DNA from: Bacillus sp. REN3
Lineage (GTDB): Bacteria; Bacillota; Bacilli; Bacillales; Cytobacillaceae
Assembly: GCF_017912555.1 (NCBI RefSeq)
Contig: NZ_JAERSD010000033.1
Location: 5,445-29,444, forward strand
Direction: 5' to 3'
DNA length: 24,000 nt
Shown here: one piece after another, positions 9,527-23,525 of the stretch
Layout of the letters: the number at the start of each line of letters is the position of its first letter
Numbering within the stretch: the stretch's first letter is position 1
Notes under the pieces: model-generated
Seen by the model: only the letters and a program-made list of their open reading frames with translations
Database searches by the model: none
What the model was told of the DNA's origin: nothing
Made by a program: the position numbers and the translations under genes

Positions 9527-9611
9527 GTGAGCATGGGGACGGTTCTCGTGGCAACCTCATTTTTTCACGCGGATTGTGGGAAACATGTGGTGACCACGAG
9601 AACAGTCCCTT
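9527..9611 (+). repeat. ~80-bp palindromic intergenic repeat, copy D
   Basis: gtgagcATGGGGACGGTTCTCgtggcaacc...ggtgaccacGAGAACAGTCCCtttt. Confidence 0.8.
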
Positions 9612-10399: not shown

Positions 10400-10484
10400 C
10401 CATGGGGACGGTTCTGCTGGCAACCTTCATGTTGCGGTTGGGTAAGGGTAACTGATGTGGGTTGTCACAAGAACCGTCCCTATG
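10400..10484 (+). repeat. ~80-bp palindromic intergenic repeat, copy E
   Basis: ccATGGGGACGGTTCTgctggcaacc...ggttgtcacaAGAACCGTCCCtatg. It starts a ~690-bp segment colinear with 1026-1716. Confidence 0.85.
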
Positions 10485-10612
10485 AAAGCCCCTTATTTTT
10501 CATTTTTTAAGTCTTTTATCCTATTAAAAATAAAGAGGTTTATTTGGATATTTGTGGAATTATATAACGGTTGTGTCTAGGTATGCAGGAGTGGTTATCA
10601 ATAGACTTAAGA

Positions 10613-10973: not shown

Positions 10974-10993
10974 AGGTATAGTATAGCGGTGAC

Positions 10994-11074
10994 CAGAGGG
11001 ACTGTTCTCCTGACAACCTTGCAATTGCGGTTGGCTAAAGGAAACTGACGGTTGTCACGAGAACCGTCCCCATG
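10994..11074 (+). repeat. ~80-bp palindromic intergenic repeat, copy F (leader of SseB-like gene)
   Basis: cagaGGGACTGTTCTCctgacaacc...ggttgtcacGAGAACCGTCCCCatg. It ends 25 nt before the ATG at 11099. Confidence 0.85.
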
Positions 11075-11098
11075 AAAACCTAGGAGTGGTTATGATTT

Positions 11099-11833
11099 AT
11101 GAGTGTTTCTTTTGATGAGCTTTTGGCTGCGGCTATTGAGGGGCCTTCTGGTCGTTTTCTTTTTTATAGGGCGTTGGTGGAGCTTGAACTTTTCGTGATT
11201 GGTTCGGTGGAGGATGATGAGTCTTTGAACTTGAAGTACATCGAGGAGGATGGGGAGCTGGTGCTGCCTGTTTTTACGAGCCGGGATAAGTTCGATGAGA
11301 TTTTTGAGTCAGAGTATCCATATGTAAGGATTCCTGCGGCGATGCTGCTGGAGATGGCAGGGACGGCCATTCCATGGCTGGTGAATCCTTTTACCGGGTT
11401 AAGCAAGAAAATCATCCGGGAGGAGCTTGAAACCTTGAAGGATGGCCGGATACTGAACTATTTTTTCGAACAGCTTCGGGATGATGAGAAGGAGAAGATC
11501 CTGACTGAGCAAATGGAAGAACTGCCTGAAGAGGCAATGGATGTGCTTCGTACATGTCTCAGGAATTTCCCTACTGTTAAAAAAGCCTACCTGGTGAACT
11601 TGTTTGATCCTGTGGTTGCTGATCCGGCTTTTCCGTTGCTGGCAGTGGAGGTGGAAGCTGTGGAAGAAGGTCTGGTCGGTGAACTTTTCGGCGCTATCAA
11701 TCATCAGGCAGAGCTGCAGATCGAAGTCATGATTCTCGACGAGGGGTTCCCGCTGGCCAGATCCATTGTCGAGCACACCAGGCCATTTTATTTTCGTGAG
11801 TCGGTTGATGAGTTAAGGACCTTGTTTGATTAG
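11099..11833 (+). CDS. SseB-family protein (244 aa), toxin-associated, copy 2
   Basis: Colinear with 1717-2451. By hand count there are about 27 substitutions in 244 residues and no indels. Confidence 0.85.
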   Translation: MSVSFDELLAAAIEGPSGRFLFYRALVELELFVIGSVEDDESLNLKYIEEDGELVLPVFTSRDKFDEIFESEYPYVRIPAAMLLEMAGTAIPWLVNPFTGLSKKIIREELETLKDGRILNYFFEQLRDDEKEKILTEQMEELPEEAMDVLRTCLRNFPTVKKAYLVNLFDPVVADPAFPLLAVEVEAVEEGLVGELFGAINHQAELQIEVMILDEGFPLARSIVEHTRPFYFRESVDELRTLFD

Positions 11834-11844
11834 GAGGTCGACGG

Positions 11845-13194
11845 GTGTCAAAGATTGATATTAAAATAAATCAAGTCAAGGCGGCGAACAGGGATTTAGT
11901 CAATCTGTCATCTCGCGTGGAGAATGAGGAGAACCGGATTTCTTCCCTTAGGGGGCAGGTTGATGGCAGGATCGCCAGCCGCCGGAACATCGGAAGGAAC
12001 TTGAGTGAGGCAGCGGCAAAGGCGAGGACAATTGAAAAGAAGCTGGGTAAACTCCATCAATTCATTGATGCATCGATGGATTTGTATATGAAGGCGGATA
12101 AGAAGGCGGACCGATTCCGGGAGCCAGAAAAGAAATCGATCTGGGAGAAGTTCGCAGACGGTTTTAAGACAGCGAATGATATAAGGAAAGGATTCCGCAA
12201 GGGAGTGGCAGAGGCCCTTTTTTCAACCGTTGAAGGTATTTGGAATGCCGTCACCCATCCGGTCAAAACCGCCAAAGGAATCGTCTATGCAATCGGCTAT
12301 CCTCTGGAAACCGCCAAAAGTATTTGGAACTCCATCTCAGACTCCTGGAAGAACGATGTTATAAACGGCGATGCCAAAAGCCGTTCTGAATGGTTCGGCC
12401 GAGCCGTCGGTGAAGCCGCCCTTGCGATTATCGGGACCAAAGGCGTCGACAAGGCTGTAAAGGTGGCCAAAGGGGCCAGGGTTGTGAAGGAGGGTGGAGG
12501 AGTTAGGGTTGTTAGGCCGGAGACTATTGAGAAGAAGGATGGCGGGGATAGGGATGGAAAACGTGTGGCTCCTGAGAGGAAATACAGCGGAGATAGGGTG
12601 GAAAAGCGGGAGATTCCTCGGATCATAGACGGGAATGGCGGAATTGGGGATAATGGGAGGAATGATACGGGTAATGGTATAGACAATGGTAATAAGGAAA
12701 CCAGCCAGCCAAGGACAGCAGAGCAAATAATATCAGATAGAACTAAGGGATTGGATTTAAACCCACATCCTATTCAGCAAAAACAATTGAGTGCTAAAAA
12801 GATGAAAGACCTGAGAGTGAAAATAGAGAATAGGACTATTACAAAAGCTGAGTATGAACAATATATATGGAATAAAAAATTTGTTAAACATAGGGCTTCA
12901 GGTGTAACCGATTTCTGGTATCAAGAACGTCAAAGAATATTAAATAACGAAACTCCAACCAGAGACTGGAATCAAGAACAATTAAATGATATTTTGAATG
13001 GTAAGAAACCTAAAGTAGATGGAGAAATAGTACAGGGGCACCATTCCTACAGTGCTTCACAATATCCGCACTTAGCGAATAAAGGGGAAATTATATATCC
13101 AGCTACACCAAACGAGCATTTCAAAGGTTGGCATGGAGGTAATTGGAAAAATAGTCTGCCAGGTAAACCAATTAATCCTATTGATGATTTCTAA
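11845..13194 (+). CDS. polymorphic toxin: conserved N-terminal 270 codons + HNH/EndoVII-type nuclease CT with GHH signature
   Basis: Same taGGAGGtcgacggGTG junction as copy 1. After G-D-N (12646-12654) the unique AT-rich CT ends ...VQGHHSYSASQYPHLANKGEIIYPATPNEHFKGWHGG, giving G-H-H ... N ... E-H as in HNH/EndoVII toxin domains. Confidence 0.8.
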   Translation: MSKIDIKINQVKAANRDLVNLSSRVENEENRISSLRGQVDGRIASRRNIGRNLSEAAAKARTIEKKLGKLHQFIDASMDLYMKADKKADRFREPEKKSIWEKFADGFKTANDIRKGFRKGVAEALFSTVEGIWNAVTHPVKTAKGIVYAIGYPLETAKSIWNSISDSWKNDVINGDAKSRSEWFGRAVGEAALAIIGTKGVDKAVKVAKGARVVKEGGGVRVVRPETIEKKDGGDRDGKRVAPERKYSGDRVEKREIPRIIDGNGGIGDNGRNDTGNGIDNGNKETSQPRTAEQIISDRTKGLDLNPHPIQQKQLSAKKMKDLRVKIENRTITKAEYEQYIWNKKFVKHRASGVTDFWYQERQRILNNETPTRDWNQEQLNDILNGKKPKVDGEIVQGHHSYSASQYPHLANKGEIIYPATPNEHFKGWHGGNWKNSLPGKPINPIDDF

Positions 13195-13215
13195 TTCATG
13201 GAGGGAGACATTCAA

Positions 13216-13545
13216 ATGGCTAAAATGAATATACAAATAGAAAAAGATACTAATGAGGTCAAGTACATTTCTATTTTAAGAAAAAATACTAATAAGAGTA
13301 TATCTGAATTAAAAGCGTTACTAAATAATAATGATTTCGTCTTATCGTATAATCTCTTAGAAATTGATGAATTGTTGGAAATGAAAAAAATAGTAAGTTT
13401 ATTATTAGGGGCTGGTGCTGAAGTCCACATATTTGAAGAGAATAGAGAGGTTAGCATTGAGTTCTTAGATAATCTTATAGAATCTCATTTAGATACAGAA
13501 AGGTATCTGGAAGAAGTTGATGAGCAAATGTTTAATGAGGATTAA
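13216..13545 (+). CDS. cognate immunity protein candidate for the GHH nuclease toxin
   Basis: Immediately downstream of the toxin. GGAGGGAG RBS before the ATG at 13216 (MAKMNIQ). Small, acidic and AT-rich like the CT module. Confidence 0.65.
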   Translation: MAKMNIQIEKDTNEVKYISILRKNTNKSISELKALLNNNDFVLSYNLLEIDELLEMKKIVSLLLGAGAEVHIFEENREVSIEFLDNLIESHLDTERYLEEVDEQMFNED

Positions 13546-13599: not shown

Positions 13600-14016
13600 A
13601 TGGCAGTAGGATTATTAGTAGATTGTTTTTATTATGAATTAGGTCATAGCGATTTTGTACATTCTTTTTTTTCAACAATATCCTATCATTTAGAAAAAGA
13701 AGGCTGGGGTACAAAATACCCTTTATTGATGAATGGATTGTATAATGACCAACTAGACTGGAATGATGTTCCTGTTGTAAAAGCTAATTTAATTAAAATT
13801 GAACAGGAATTATCAAATTACTCGCCGGAACAAGTTATATGGGATATTGATGACTTATCACAAGTACCACCGTGGGGAGATAAAATAAGCCCAAAAGTAA
13901 CTAGTCTAGCAAATTATTTTGCAACATCTGATGGGAAAACATTTTTTGAAGTACTACGTACAGCAATTGAGGTAGCAGAAGAAGATAAATGTGATTTAAA
14001 AATTCACAAACTATAA
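13600..14016 (+). CDS. orphan immunity protein, paralogue of 3686-4102
   Basis: Clear paralogy to the locus-1 immunity protein (GHSDFVHSFFSTISYHLEKEGWGTKYP...PEQVIWDIDDLSQVPPWGDKIS), but no matching PD-(D/E)xK toxin module lies upstream in this locus. Confidence 0.7.
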   Translation: MAVGLLVDCFYYELGHSDFVHSFFSTISYHLEKEGWGTKYPLLMNGLYNDQLDWNDVPVVKANLIKIEQELSNYSPEQVIWDIDDLSQVPPWGDKISPKVTSLANYFATSDGKTFFEVLRTAIEVAEEDKCDLKIHKL

Positions 14017-14023
14017 TCTTTCT

Positions 14024-14056
14024 AAACCATGGGACACTATCCCATGGTTTTTTTTG
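14024..14056 (+). terminator. rho-independent terminator
   Basis: aaaccatggga-cacta-tcccatggttt followed by tttttt. Confidence 0.8.
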
Positions 14057-14059
14057 CGA

Positions 14060-14701
14060 ATGAGTACTATTGAGAAGAAGGATGGCGGGGGCAGGGATGG
14101 GAAACCTGTGGCGCCTGAGAGGAGAAATAGCGGAAAAGGTGTTGGAACAAGGGAGGTTCCTCAGAGGATAGACGGGGATGGCGGAATTGGGGATAATGGT
14201 GGTAAGAGTACGGTTAAAGTGTACCCTACAAGACAAATAGATCCTATAAAAGAAATCCATATAATTGATAGGGTGAAAGAGCTTAGAGGAAACTTAACTG
14301 CTGGATACAAAAAGTCAGGAAATTTTGCTATAGCAGAGGTATACGTCAAGGGGTTGAGGAAAGAATTTTATGCTCAGAGTAGTATAAATGATTTAAACGG
14401 TACTTTAGAAGAACGTGTTCCGGATATTTCATTAAAACCTATCAACCCAACATTTAAAGCTTCATATGCAGCAGATAAAAATGGAATTGAATATTTAAGA
14501 GACAGTGATACAGAATACAAAATTCTAAACGATATTGCTCATAGTCTTGGACATAATACTGAAGCTACAGGTAAGATAAAGCTGTTTACAGAATTAGATA
14601 CTTGTAATAGTTGTAGTAAAGTCATAGCGGAATTTTCTGTGAAATTCAAAAACATTGAGTTAGAAGTTGTCCATAATGATGGAAAAAGAATTAAACCTTA
14701 G
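14060..14701 (+). CDS. orphan toxin C-terminal module (linker handle + deaminase-fold-like domain), probably not independently translated
   Basis: It begins inside the terminator T-run with no RBS. From about 14065 the first ~45 codons (TIEKKDGGGRDGKPVAPERRNSGKGVGTREVPQRIDGDGGIGDN) are homologous to the linker of the full-length toxins, up to the G-D-N junction (14189-14197). The unique CT contains DSDTEYKILNDIA ... IKLFTELDTCNSCSKVI, a [HCD]xE ... CxxC spacing typical of the cytidine-deaminase fold. Confidence 0.55.
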   Translation: MSTIEKKDGGGRDGKPVAPERRNSGKGVGTREVPQRIDGDGGIGDNGGKSTVKVYPTRQIDPIKEIHIIDRVKELRGNLTAGYKKSGNFAIAEVYVKGLRKEFYAQSSINDLNGTLEERVPDISLKPINPTFKASYAADKNGIEYLRDSDTEYKILNDIAHSLGHNTEATGKIKLFTELDTCNSCSKVIAEFSVKFKNIELEVVHNDGKRIKP

Positions 14702-14721
14702 CTTTATAGGAGAGGGTATAT

Positions 14722-15093
14722 ATGGAAGAATGGGAATACAATGAATTGCTTGAAAGTGTTAATGATGTATACCTTGATTTGTTGAATGAAAAAAGAGGAT
14801 ATAAATACGCTATTGCCAGGACATTTTATGAATTTGAAACTGTATGCAATGAAGGGGAAACAGAAAACCTATTAGTTCATTTAGCTATAGGAGAGATTGT
14901 ATTAGCACATCCAAAAGTCTTTGTAGGGGTAGTTGACTCTATTAAAAAAGCACTGGGGCACACCAATATAGAACATTTGGAGAATGAATTGGCACCTGAA
15001 GAGATTGAGGATCTTTTTACAAGAAAAAATAATGTTATTAATGGAATTAATAAAGTAGAGATAGATTATGATCCCAATGCAGATAATTATTAA
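14722..15093 (+). CDS. immunity protein candidate for the orphan deaminase-like module
   Basis: RBS taggagaggg. Starts 20 nt after the orphan CT stop. Small and acidic. Confidence 0.6.
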   Translation: MEEWEYNELLESVNDVYLDLLNEKRGYKYAIARTFYEFETVCNEGETENLLVHLAIGEIVLAHPKVFVGVVDSIKKALGHTNIEHLENELAPEEIEDLFTRKNNVINGINKVEIDYDPNADNY

Positions 15094-15200: not shown

Positions 15201-15286
15201 GTGAGCATGGGGACGTTTATCGTGGCAACCTCGCTTTTAGCCGTGATTAAGGGAAACTACGGGTGAGCACAAGAACCGTCCCCGTG
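15201..15286 (+). repeat. ~80-bp palindromic intergenic repeat, copy G
   Basis: gtgagcATGGGGACGTTTATCgtggcaacc...gtgagcacaAGAACCGTCCCCgtg. Confidence 0.8.
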
Positions 15287-15385
15287 AAAACTCACGTGAA
15301 AACCTCTCAAATAAAAACAAGTGAATAAATACCATATATAACCATTTTTATGATAAAATAACAACATCCTTAATAATGGAGGAAT

Positions 15386-17137: not shown

Positions 17138-17194
17138 CCTTGCTGTGCGGTTGACTAAAGGGAACTGCTGGTTGTCACGAGAACCGTCCCCATG
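17138..17194 (+). repeat. palindromic intergenic repeat, copy H, left arm missing (leader of SseB-like gene)
   Basis: ...ccttgctgtgcggttgactaaagggaactgctggttgtcacGAGAACCGTCCCCatg. The centre and right arm are present, with no GGGGACGGTTCTC on the left. Confidence 0.75.
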
Positions 17195-17229
17195 AAAACT
17201 CATGAAAATCCAGGGAGTGGTTATATTTT

Positions 17230-17964
17230 ATGAGTGTTTCTTTTGATGAGCTTTTGGCTGCGGCTGTTGAGGGGCCTTCTGGTCGTTTTCTTTTTTATAG
17301 GGCGTTGGTGGAGCTTGAGTTGTTCGTCATTGGTTCGGTGGCGGATGATGAAACTTTGAGCTTGAGGTACATCGAGGAGGATGGGGAGCTTGTGCTGCCT
17401 GTTTTTACGAGCCGGGAGAAGTTCGATGAGATTTTCAAGTCTGAGTATCCATATGTAAGGATTCAGGCGGAATTGCTGTTGGAGATGGCAGGAACGGACA
17501 TTCCATGGCTGGTGAATCCTTTTACAGGGTTAAGCAAGAAAATCATCCGGGAGGAGCTTGAAACCTTGAAGGATGGCCGGATCCTGAACTATTTTTTCGA
17601 ACAGCTTAGTGACGAGGAGAAAGAACGGATCCTGACTGAGCTAATGGAAGAACTGCCTGAAGAGGCAATGGATGTACTGCGAACATGTCTCAAGCAGTTC
17701 CCTACTGTTAAAAAAGCCTACCTGGTAAACCTGTTTGATCCTACGGCGGCTGATGAGGCGTTCCCGCTGCTGGCAGTGGAGGTGGAAGCTGTGGAAGAAG
17801 GTCTGGTCGGAGAACTTTTTAACGCTATCAATCATCATGCAGAGCCGCAGGTCGAAGTCATGATTCTCGACGAGTCGTTCCCGCTGGCAACCTCCATTGT
17901 CGGGCACACCAGGCCATTTTATTTCCGTGAATCGGTTGATGAGTTAAGGACAATGTTTGATTAG
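17230..17964 (+). CDS. SseB-family protein (244 aa), toxin-associated, copy 3
   Basis: Colinear with copies 1 and 2, with no indels. Confidence 0.85.
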   Translation: MSVSFDELLAAAVEGPSGRFLFYRALVELELFVIGSVADDETLSLRYIEEDGELVLPVFTSREKFDEIFKSEYPYVRIQAELLLEMAGTDIPWLVNPFTGLSKKIIREELETLKDGRILNYFFEQLSDEEKERILTELMEELPEEAMDVLRTCLKQFPTVKKAYLVNLFDPTAADEAFPLLAVEVEAVEEGLVGELFNAINHHAEPQVEVMILDESFPLATSIVGHTRPFYFRESVDELRTMFD

Positions 17965-17975
17965 GAGGTCGACGG

Positions 17976-19175
17976 GTGTCAAAGATTGAGGTTAAAATAA
18001 ATCAGGTCAAGGCGGCGAACAGGGATTTAGTCAATCTATCCTCTCGAGTGGAGAATGAGGAGAACCGGATTTCTTCCCTTAGGGGGCAGGTTGATGGCCG
18101 GATCGCCAGCCGCCGGAACATCGGAAGGAACTTGAGTGAGGCAGCTGCAAAGGCGAGGGCAATTGAAAAGAAGCTGGGTAAACTCCATCAATTCGTTGAT
18201 GCCTCGATGGATTTGTATGTGAAGGCCGATTAGAAGGCGGACCGATTCCGGGAGCCGGATAAGAAATCGATCTGGGAGAAGATCACAGACGGTTTTAAGA
18301 CTGCGAATGATATAAGGAAGGGATTCAGGAAGGGAGTGGCAGAGGCCTTTTTTTCAACCGTTGAAGGTATTTGGAATGCCGTCACCCATCCGGTCAAAAC
18401 CGCCAAAGGAATCGTCTATGCAATCGGCTATCCTCTGGAAACCGCCAAAAGTATTTGGAACTCCATCTCAGACTCCTGGAAGAACGATGTTATAAACGGC
18501 GATGCCAAAAGCCGTTCTGAATGGTTCGGCCGAGCCGTCGGTGAAGCCGCCCTTGCGATTATCGGGACCAAAGGCGTCGACAAGGCTGTAAAGGTGGCCA
18601 AAGGGGCCAGGGTTGTGAAGGAGGGTGGAGGAGTTAGGGTTGTTAGGCCGGAGACTATTGAGAAGAAGGATGGCGGGGATAGGGATGGAAAACGTGTGGC
18701 TCCTGAGAGGAAATACAGCGGAGATAGGGTGGAAAAGCGGGAGATTCCTCGGATCATAGACGGGAATGGCGGAATTGGGGATAATATCAATAAGGGTCCG
18801 GGTAATGATGTACCTCCTTATGGAAGAAAGTCAGTCCCTATAGGGCCTTACCGTGAAGTAAATGGTTATCCAGTAAAAGTGAAACCAGGTGCTCAGGAGA
18901 AACATATTCCAAATACTCCGAATTACAAACAAGAGATAGCGAGTGGGAAAAACAAAAGTATCATCTATGGCGATAATAAAACAACACAAGAATTGCTTGA
19001 TAAGTTTGCAGGAAATGGAACCACTGTTACCAAAAATAAAGAGAGAGTGGACTTTGGTGAACCAATAGGTAAATACTATGATACTGTGACTGGACAATAT
19101 ATAGAGACTAGTAGAGGAATGATACACTATGGAAAAGATGGTGCTCATATAGTACCAGCAAAACCATCAGAATAA
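17976..19175 (+). pseudogene. polymorphic toxin interrupted by one in-frame TAG; conserved N-terminal part + Ntox50-like (YobL/YxiD-CT-type?) C-terminal module
   Basis: Track ORFs 17976-18233 and 18336-19175 are in the same frame. The only lesion is TAG at 18231-18233 where copies 1 and 2 have AAG (gcggatAAGaaggcgg vs gccgatTAGaaggcgg). The CT after G-D-N (18777-18785) reads QEKHIPNTPNYKQ...LLDKFAGNG...KERVDFGEPIGKYYD...[17 protein letters not shown], which resembles the 'polymorphic toxin type 50' pattern I remember. Confidence 0.8.
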
Positions 19176-19194
19176 AATAAGAAAGAGGATGTTT

Positions 19195-19533
19195 ATGGAA
19201 GCAGATTCTTTATTTAAAACATTATTAGAGTATGAAGGTGTAGAAATCATATTAGAGTGGAACAGTGGATTAAGAATTGTAGGAAAAACAGACACATTTT
19301 TTGAGACAGACAATGGATTAGATGATGATGATCCCGAGTACGCAGAGTATTATGCAACTGCATTTCAAGTAAATCATATTTTATCCCATCCTTCTACTAA
19401 CGAAGGTAGTGTATATGATTGGTTGAAACAAGAAAAAAGTTCATTGGTTGAAATTTCTCTCTATGACGACCCACCAAGTTCCGTATTATTAACTGACGGA
19501 AAGAGAGTATGGGATAGGGAAATACCTAAATAA
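19195..19533 (+). CDS. cognate immunity protein candidate for the Ntox50-like toxin
   Basis: Immediately downstream of the toxin. I prefer the start at the second ATG (19195), 6 nt after aagaaagagg. Small and acidic. Confidence 0.65.
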
Positions 19534-21079: not shown

Positions 21080-21265
21080 GACCGATTCCGGGAGCCGGAA
21101 AAGAAATCGATTTGGGAGAAAATCGCAGACGGTTTTAAGACAGCGAATGATATGAGGAAAGGATTCCGGAAGGGAGTTGCAGAGGCTCTTTTTTCAACAG
21201 TTGAAGGTATTTGGAACACCGTAACCCATCCGGTCAAAACGGCCAAAGGGATTGTCTATGCCATC
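21080..21265 (+). pseudogene. internal fragment of a PT-TG toxin gene (about codons 89-152) fused to the RHS fragment
   Basis: DRFREPEKKSIWEKIADGFKTANDMRKGFRKGVAEALFSTVEGIWNTVTHPVKTAKGIVYAI. The nucleotide sequence is colinear with 2728-2913, 12110-12295 and 18241-18426. Confidence 0.8.
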
Positions 21266-21985
21266 CTGTCCATCAGGACATAGACCTGTTCCTCATCAGA
21301 GGCAGGAAACGTCTGAATCATTTCTATGGCCAGGTCGTTCTTGCTTTTGAAAGATCGATGATGTTCTTTGCAGTATTCCTGCCTGAAATACGTTCGGAAA
21401 TCCCATGCGAAGGAATAACCTTCATCTACCAAATGGGTTGTCACCAGGCAGTGCGACCAGACACTTTTCCCTTCAGAATGGGAGAAGTGGAAATCCAATG
21501 CCTCCATCTTTCGTGTTGAGTTATCCTTATGGCACCCGGTGTCATCGACGATCAGGAAAATAATCGGCCTGTCGTCACCCTGTTTATGCCGAGCCCGACG
21601 AATGGAATTCATCAGGTGATTCATTCTTTTGGACTGTACACGCTTGGCACACCATGGGGATTCCTTCAGGAAACGTGTCAAACAGCTAAGGTCACGGTCT
21701 TTCCCGGAATGGTTCCGTATCTGCGTCATCGTTTTTCTGCCTGCGGTCAGGATGATGCCATGCATGATGGTAATCAAGTGATTAAGCTGGGGCTTGGATA
21801 AGCATAGACCAAGAGTGACAATGAACTTGACGATAGCAGAATGGATAGTTACCATAACCTTAGACATCTCCTTTTTTCTGGAATTTGGATTGGGTGGTAC
21901 CTTCCATTTCCCACGATTAAAGGGATGTCATTCTTGTTTTTATGAAGTTTTCAAGGTTAGACAAAACTAGACAATGTTTACGACA
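21266..21985 (-). mobile_element. truncated IS (IS701/IS4-superfamily DDE transposase, N-terminal ~200 codons only)
   Basis: Minus-strand ORF 21256-21867: MSKVMVTIHSAIVKFIVTLGLCLSKPQLNHL...LSCLTRFLKESPW...IIFLIVDDTGCHK...SKNDLAIEMI...QVYVLMD. The L.RFL..S.W, DDT and SK..LA blocks are typical of IS701-like DDE transposases as I remember them. The reading frame ends at the junction with the toxin fragment. The outer end (about 21985) is estimated only. Confidence 0.6.
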
Positions 21986-23525
21986 AGATTTTTGCAAGAC
22001 TCAAGTTACTTATACTTATGACCCAAACGGAAATGTTTCAAGTAGCACCTTAGCTTCCGGTACATCCTTAATTGTCACTAATTATAAGTATGATAAAAAT
22101 AATCAACTTACGAATATTTCGGGTGGGAATAGCTCTACAAATTTTACTTATTCTGAAAATGATAAAGTAGTTGGAATTAATAATAAAAATGGAACCAATA
22201 CATTCTTAAACCATGACGGTGCTGGCCAGTTAACAAGTGTGATTACACAAGATGCTAATGGTAGCTTGATTAGTTCCTATGATTATACTTTTAATGAAAA
22301 GGGGAATATTATAAAAGAAAAAGCAAAAGAAGGAACGAAACAATTTTTTTATGACAAAAAGGAACAATTAACTAAAGAAGTGTTGCAAAATGGTGACATC
22401 TATGAATATTCTTATGATGCGGCAGGTAATCGAATTAGTAAAAAGACAATTAAGGGAACAGACGTATCTTCAATAAATTATACCTACGACGCAGCTAATC
22501 AACTGGTTTCCATAAATGGAAATGCAACGATGCATGATAATAATGGGAATCTTTCCGGTGATGAAAAAAAAACCTATATTTATGATGCTGAAGATAGATT
22601 GATTGAGGTAAAAGAGGGAACCGTTTCACTTTCTAAGTATGAATATAATTCAGCTGGTCTGAGGATAAGTAAAACTACAGGTTCAACAACTATTTATTAT
22701 AGTTATGACGAGAATAATAATGTGGTTTTAGAAACGGATAAAACAGGGACAATATTAGCTTCTTATATTTATGACAAGGAGAATAAGCCGGTAACTATGT
22801 CCCAAGGTGGAAAAACATTTACTTTCCACGCAAATGGCCATGGTGATATAACAAAAGTAACAGACCAAACAGGTACAATAGTTGCGTCATTCGAGTATGA
22901 TTCTTGGGGAAACATTCTTAATGAAAGTGGTATAGCTGCTGCGGATATCCCATTCCGTTATGCTGGTTATCGTTACGATGCTGAAACAAAATTGTACTAT
23001 TTACAACAAAGATATTACAATCCTGAGATAGGTAGGTTTATAACTACTGATCCGGTTTTAGGTGCAAAAGAATTACCTATTAGTCAAAACGGCTATGCTT
23101 ATGCAGATAATAACCCTGTAATGAATGTAGATCCTAACGGGATGTTTTCTGTCCCTAAAAAGTTAAAATCAGCACTAAGATACTTTATTACAAAAATCTT
23201 TGATGATTTTATTGAAAATACCCTCACAAACGCCGTAATGATAATTGGTGGTGGAGGTATTGGAGCATGGACAGCTAGGAAATTGGCAATGAAGGGATTT
23301 ACGATGTTGAGGCGCTCCCCAAATAAAAAGGCAATTATAGGTTTTGTCACAGGGGGGATAACATCATATATCGCAGGAAATTGGTTCTCTAAAGCTGCAT
23401 CTATTGCGCAATATTGGACTTCTAAACTATGGAAGTATGAAAATTGGTTTGATAGGAACTGGCTTGGAAAAAAGATAGATAACGGTTTGCGCAGAGCAAA
23501 AAATTATCTGCTTAGAAGAATCTAA
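21942..23525 (+). CDS. RHS-repeat toxin, 5'-truncated; YD repeats + RHS core end (DPNGM) + glycine-rich hydrophobic C-terminal toxin module
   Basis: YD repeats run from about 21990 (VTYTYDPNGN...). The core terminus reads YYLQQRYYNPEIGRFITTDPV...YAYADNNPVMNVDPNGM (DPNGM at 23130-23144). A 126-aa CT follows, with AVMIIGGGGIGAWTA and AIIGFVTGGITSYIAGNWF. The first ~15 codons of the track ORF derive from the IS end or junction. Confidence 0.7.
   Translation: MKFSRLDKTRQCLRQDFCKTQVTYTYDPNGNVSSSTLASGTSLIVTNYKYDKNNQLTNISGGNSSTNFTYSENDKVVGINNKNGTNTFLNHDGAGQLTSVITQDANGSLISSYDYTFNEKGNIIKEKAKEGTKQFFYDKKEQLTKEVLQNGDIYEYSYDAAGNRISKKTIKGTDVSSINYTYDAANQLVSINGNATMHDNNGNLSGDEKKTYIYDAEDRLIEVKEGTVSLSKYEYNSAGLRISKTTGSTTIYYSYDENNNVVLETDKTGTILASYIYDKENKPVTMSQGGKTFTFHANGHGDITKVTDQTGTIVASFEYDSWGNILNESGIAAADIPFRYAGYRYDAETKLYYLQQRYYNPEIGRFITTDPVLGAKELPISQNGYAYADNNPVMNVDPNGMFSVPKKLKSALRYFITKIFDDFIENTLTNAVMIIGGGGIGAWTARKLAMKGFTMLRRSPNKKAIIGFVTGGITSYIAGNWFSKAASIAQYWTSKLWKYENWFDRNWLGKKIDNGLRRAKNYLLRRI

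Follow-up and report, generated by a model that had tools for sequence, protein, structure and literature searches.

[quoted passage not shown] 2014, PMC3967940). The loci of Rhs, CDI, and T6SS systems show C-terminal displacement and arrays of orphan effector and immunity genes (Kirchberger et al. 2017, PMC5361080, citing Jackson et al. 2009); in them, a constant 5′ part is joined to a variable 3′ tip that has an immunity gene, orphan tips and immunity genes occur in strings, and homologous recombination makes mosaic genes. For these systems, it is established that homologous exchange can run up to the constant/variable junction, that orphan tips carry homology arms, and that effector genes can be mosaic (PMC3967940, PMC5361080). 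Here, we describe two paralogous toxin operons of Bacillus sp. REN3 that are identical over a 437-bp tract ending at the boundary of their tips, probably as a result of recent gene conversion.

The loci share the plan of the Rhs, CDI, and T6SS systems, with orphan strings and recombination mosaics; however, the accounts of those systems concern mostly exchange between strains, and the exchange here is between paralogues of one genome. As in LT2, a few hundred base pairs of near-identity run up to the tip boundary (522 bp at 95% in LT2 and 437 bp at 100% in REN3). In LT2 the orphan is truncated, whereas its counterpart here is a complete operon that has an SseB-like gene and a front of its own and is silenced by a single nonsense codon; the delivery family here is a different, Gram-positive one. 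Recombination in the shared stretch of LT2 swaps the tip, whereas the sequence here shows a noncrossover patch and no swap as such.

The LXG-type T7SSb toxins of Bacillota (PF04740, Bacillus subtilis YeeF/YezG type) have the same plan and the same pool of tips as the toxins described here. LXG toxins are usually paired with small helical partner proteins, whereas the upstream partner here belongs to the SseB family, and the N-terminal 270 aa here match neither the LXG nor the PT-TG model. Gene conversion between bacterial paralogues (concerted evolution) produces the same kind of identity patch inside diverged copies and is recognized by the same longest-run logic, which is that of Sawyer’s GENECONV test; the present case does not differ from it in any essential way, its special feature being a patch that adjoins a module boundary.

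The window, meaning the whole stretch of 24,000 nucleotides that was analyzed, lies on contig C27 of a 4.36-Mb draft genome in 100 contigs. The genome has five paralogous operons, each made up of an SseB-like gene, a toxin gene, and a small downstream gene; three are in the window (loci 1 to 3) and two are on contig C13 (15422-17049 and 18221-19861, called C13a and C13b). The five toxins have about 270 N-terminal residues in common, followed after the residues G-D-N by unrelated tips (GHH, Ntox50, and others), and from sequence the loci are best read as a polymorphic toxin system with exchangeable C-terminal tips. The features of the window that bear on this are as follows.

1717 to 4102, plus strand: locus 1, with an SseB-like gene, a toxin gene (402 aa), and an Imm70 immunity gene.
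11099 to 11833, plus strand: SseB-like gene of locus 2 (244 aa; Pfam SseB and SseB_C).
11845 to 13194, plus strand: toxin gene of locus 2 (449 aa), with the conserved N-terminal 270 aa and Pfam Tox-GHH at aa 348-419.
13198 to 13545, plus strand: putative immunity gene of locus 2 (115 aa), so called from its position directly 3′ of the toxin gene only.
13600 to 15093, plus strand: orphan array between loci 2 and 3, with an Imm70 gene, a terminator-like hairpin, a start-less deaminase tip, and an Imm3 gene.
17230 to 17964, plus strand: SseB-like gene of locus 3 (244 aa, intact; Pfam SseB and SseB_C).
17976 to 19175, plus strand: toxin gene of locus 3, interrupted by TAG, with an Ntox50 tip in its 3′ part (Pfam).
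19189 to 19533, plus strand: putative immunity gene of locus 3 (114 aa), a homologue of the open reading frame after the C13b toxin gene, without a family match.
21080 to 21265, plus strand: relic fragment, 91% identical to 12109-12294 and covering the first 77 bp of the tract region.

The immunity side is represented by the Imm70 gene 3′ of the locus-1 toxin gene and, nearby in the window, by the orphan Imm70 gene, deaminase tip, and Imm3 gene and a YezG-like orphan gene. The orphan deaminase tip has a homology arm of ∼150 bp at 14066-14218. The 115-aa open reading frame after the locus-2 toxin gene had no family match in Pfam or NCBIfam. A 527-aa open reading frame with YD repeats and an RHS-associated core domain (21942-23525) lies just 3′ of the relic fragment and represents a second kind of polymorphic toxin in the same island. 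A palindromic, noncoding repeat of ∼85 to 90 nt was also observed at cassette borders, in eight copies.

1023-1114, 1598-1691, 5081-5160, 9527-9609, 10405-10490, 10988-11080, 15201-15291, and 17146-17199: copies of the palindromic repeat.

None of these toxins matched PF04740 (LXG) at an E value of ≤0.01, nor did the toxin halves at an E value of ≤10, and the N-terminal part had no match in NCBIfam. The PT-TG model (PF14449) does match a control LXG toxin and the toxins of contig C34 (see below) but had no match in the 145 aa encoded by the tract, even at an E value of ≤10; the region may nonetheless bear a remote likeness to PT-TG (a G-T-K-G motif). BLASTP against a genuine LXG toxin gave an E value of 0.01 over 122 aa only, and a sequence search against solved structures returned no meaningful match. 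The 270-aa N-terminal part, modeled with AlphaFold2 from a 20-sequence alignment, reached a mean pLDDT of 36, too poor for a fold search; this part is predicted to be mostly helical, with a disordered linker after about aa 224. By protein search, the genome's nearest named relatives were Mesobacillus and other Bacillaceae. T7SSb machinery is encoded in the genome, namely, an EssC-type ATPase (model TIGR03928, 1133 bits, C34:223455-227333) and WXG100 proteins, whose genes adjoin it.

Four other species of the genus have nucleotide homology to locus 2 (75 to 77%) only as far as query base 1557-1558, corresponding to 12655-12656 of the window. From aa 275 onward (12667-13194), the tip has 95% protein identity to the tip of an LXG-annotated toxin of Sporosarcina (name as given by its source). 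Because homology to other species ends at G-D-N, and the match to an LXG toxin of another genus begins five residues on, G-D-N (codon 270) is a true module boundary. The same GHH tip is 76 to 91% identical to LXG toxin tips of Priestia, Cytobacillus, Oceanobacillus, and the Bacillus pumilus group; with identities of 76 to 95% in all, such tips are thus common to several genera and delivery families. In the wider family, the variable part starts either after G-G-V-R-V-V (about aa 221), as seen in more distant members, or after G-D-N (aa 270), and with these two alternative starts the linker of aa 222-270 acts as a semivariable module.

Loci 2 and 3 were compared directly with each other, and the tract that they share has the following two copies.

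12218 to 12654, plus strand: identical tract, locus-2 copy, in the intact toxin gene with the GHH nuclease tip, where it starts at the second base of codon 125 and ends with codon 270.
18349 to 18785, plus strand: identical tract, locus-3 copy, in the Ntox50-tipped toxin gene (100% over positions 1-437).

All 437 positions are the same, and the run is maximal, since the neighboring base differs between the loci at each end. No exact repeat in the assembly is longer, and a search of the contigs found no third copy. Homology between the two loci runs at a constant offset of +6131 from ∼11076, in the leader of the SseB-like gene, to 12654; it takes in the SseB-like gene and then codons 1-270 of the toxin gene (from 11845 and 17976, respectively). 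Of the 1142 bp 5′ of the tract, 96 (8.4%) are mismatched: the leader, the SseB-like gene, and a short spacer account for 73 of these, and the toxin gene, over its first 373 bp, for 23. The SseB-like genes of the two loci have a nucleotide divergence of 9.3%, and the longest exact run upstream of the tract is 56 bp. Past 12654, identity is 26/50 and then at random level, and in both toxin genes codons 268-270 (G-D-N) close the tract. The earlier note had described a tract identical base for base, scattered substitutions 5′ of it (also in the SseB-like genes), unrelated sequence 3′ of it, and an end exactly at G-D-N. The pairwise comparison, with its offset homology, identical patch, and unrelated tips, bears out each of these, where “exactly” is to be read as within about 10 to 20 bp: the copied stretch may end anywhere between the last former difference and the stop of homology, so the true 3′ end can be placed only to the spacing of the former differences. 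A scan for promoters and terminators gave nothing informative for the tract. The Chi-like AGCGG at 12586 and 12605 within the tract was dropped from consideration, a 5-mer being too common to be meaningful.

A run as long as 437 bp arose in 0 of 20,000 permutations of the mismatch positions (p < 5e-5). Its analytic chance, at an overall divergence of 6.1%, is about 1e-10, which is conservative because the tract itself is included in the divergence figure. With an expected count taken from the flanks (40 synonymous differences in 370 codons), the 145 codons of the tract should differ between loci 2 and 3 by 15.7 synonymous changes and differ by 0 (P about 1.6e-7).

Such identity might have been maintained by selection, either on a function of the nucleotide sequence itself, such as an RNA element or a regulatory site, or through extreme protein constraint. 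The tract does encode the most conserved N-terminal stretch of the family together with the linker, and in the family alignment the invariant columns cluster at aa 116-219. However, the same tract differs from the other three paralogues of this genome (locus 1, C13a, and C13b) at 46 to 63 of 437 sites (10.5 to 14.4%; 63 for locus 1), with 19 to 26 synonymous codon differences, and it also encodes the linker of aa 222-270, which varies across the family. Since three paralogues in the same genome are free to differ, at synonymous sites as well, constraint does not explain the identity, and we regard this account as extremely improbable. It is also very unlikely, in our view, that a short-read assembler merged a few real differences by bubble popping and wrote one consensus in both places, although the genome is a 100-contig draft and the tract its longest exact repeat. 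The flanks differ every 12 to 16 bp, too densely for merging, and so the abrupt drop to zero differences requires genuine near-identity. Elsewhere, the same assembly kept an isolated repeat mismatch between 226 and 163 exact bases, and it kept repeats of 96.5% identity separate. At worst, smoothing would turn “100%” into “>99%” and leave the biological reading unchanged. A two-copy direct repeat can be traversed by only one linear path that takes in all of the sequence, so the arrangement of segments in loci 2 and 3 should not be in doubt.

The pattern most probably arose when loci 2 and 3 recently underwent nonreciprocal homologous recombination (gene conversion), its 3′ end being set by the loss of homology. 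This agrees with the earlier note, which had suggested that the two loci very recently underwent gene conversion or recombined: a run identical at synonymous sites too lies in flanks diverged by 6 to 9%, and each locus retains its own sequence on both sides. Retention of both sets of flanks points to a noncrossover exchange (gene conversion or double crossover) and not to an unequal single crossover, which was ruled out, as its products would have the wrong layout. Recent duplication of the whole cassette was likewise ruled out, the flanks being 6 to 9% diverged. The alternative offered in the earlier note, a recent C-terminal replacement in which one gene gained its present tip by a single crossover and the tract is the footprint of the donor arm, is unneeded and fits worse; we consider it very unlikely. 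It would account for identity that stops at the module boundary, orphan tips with homology arms lie nearby, arm-mediated swaps have been demonstrated in rhs (PMC3967940), and tips do move, as the 95% protein identity of the locus-2 tip to one in another genus indicates. Yet the donor arm would have had to match the other resident locus exactly, and a single crossover would have either deleted 6.1 kb and joined the locus-2 front through the tract to the locus-3 tip or produced a hybrid as a third copy. Both loci instead keep their own 5′ part and their own tip (locus 3 being a mosaic of its own front, the locus-2 tract, and its own tip), and the assembly is without a third copy of the tract.

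Under gene conversion, recombination, which we take to be of the RecA type, would have occurred between paralogous operons lying 6131 bp apart as direct repeats. No crossover would have taken place, and one toxin gene would have received at least 437 bp of the other. Heteroduplex extension or pairing would have halted where the conserved delivery part meets the exchangeable tip, the 5′ end of the patch being arbitrary; the 3′ end would coincide with the tip boundary because pairing cannot proceed into unrelated sequence. With 0 differences in 437 bp, the 95% upper bound on divergence since the event is about 0.7%, under a tenth of the flank divergence (6 to 9%), and the event is therefore young. 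There is a weak hint that locus 3 was the donor and locus 2 the recipient: the 3′-terminal 41 bp of the tract are C13b-like, with 1 mismatch to C13b against 4.8 expected (P = 0.04, for a boundary picked post hoc), and run on into the C13b-like segment of the locus-3 tip. In a protein search with the N-terminal part, identity of >77% was found only for the copies of this genome itself. A cluster look-up returned start-codon variants only, plus one 60-aa metagenome fragment of the locus-3 tip, and metagenomes searched with the protein and with a 30-nt word specific to the tract gave no match.

Locus 3 is a mosaic of four parts, namely, its own 5′ sequence to 18348, the tract identical to locus 2 (18349-18785), a C13b-like segment, and then sequence of 70 to 78% identity.

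18745 to 19007, plus strand: C13b-like segment of locus 3, 97% identical to C13b (8 mismatches in 263 bp) and overlapping the last 41 bp of the tract.

Past 19007, the Ntox50 domain and the downstream gene are only 70 to 78% identical to C13b. C13b itself is decayed, its SseB-like gene truncated to 158 aa and its Ntox50 domain frameshifted. It shares a 112-bp exact run with C13a (p = 5e-5). Next in length among the exact repeats of the assembly is one of 388 bp (C34: 282887-283274 and 292317-292704), which lies inside a 1.33-kb, 96.5%-identical pair of operons that encode a YwqH-like protein and WXG100/PT-TG toxins with differing tips, about 55 kb from the T7SSb essC gene on the same contig. 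This run covers the upstream gene and the start of the toxin gene, away from the tip boundary. Taken together, the patches between locus 3 and C13b, between C13a and C13b, and on C34 indicate that toxin paralogues of this genome have exchanged patches repeatedly and not at one fixed site.

Codon 86 of the locus-3 toxin gene (18231-18233) is an in-frame TAG, where loci 1 and 2 have AAG. It sits 116 bp 5′ of the tract and divides the gene into open reading frames of 85 aa and 279 aa; the SseB-like gene and the small downstream open reading frame of locus 3 are intact. Private substitutions number 55 in locus 2 and 55 in locus 3, and with these equal counts the silencing of locus 3 looks recent. 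Because the nonsense codon lies upstream of the tract, locus 3, as assembled, would act as a silent, spare tip cassette with a perfect 437-bp handle. A single crossover within this handle would join the intact front of locus 2 to the Ntox50 tip and its immunity gene, so that the tract is a ready homology arm for a future tip swap. By extension, the perfect handle might be no accident: repeated conversion could keep spare or silenced fronts identical to the expressed one and so allow high-frequency tip switching by a cassette system, comparable to silent-cassette antigenic variation but in an undescribed, SseB-partnered toxin family of Bacillaceae; we think this unlikely.

What is new here is only the host family, the SseB-partnered toxin family without a model in the domain libraries, and the fact that one operon of the pair is intact and the other silenced by a nonsense codon. 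The known picture of how polymorphic toxins diversify is unchanged. To that picture, the two loci add a clean, dated example of Gram-positive toxin paralogues in the same genome exchanging sequence up to, and not across, the tip boundary. For annotation, the end of the tract shows where the modules meet in a toxin family missed by current domain libraries. For the biology of the family, a nonsense-silenced operon could be a reserve tip with a perfect recombination handle.
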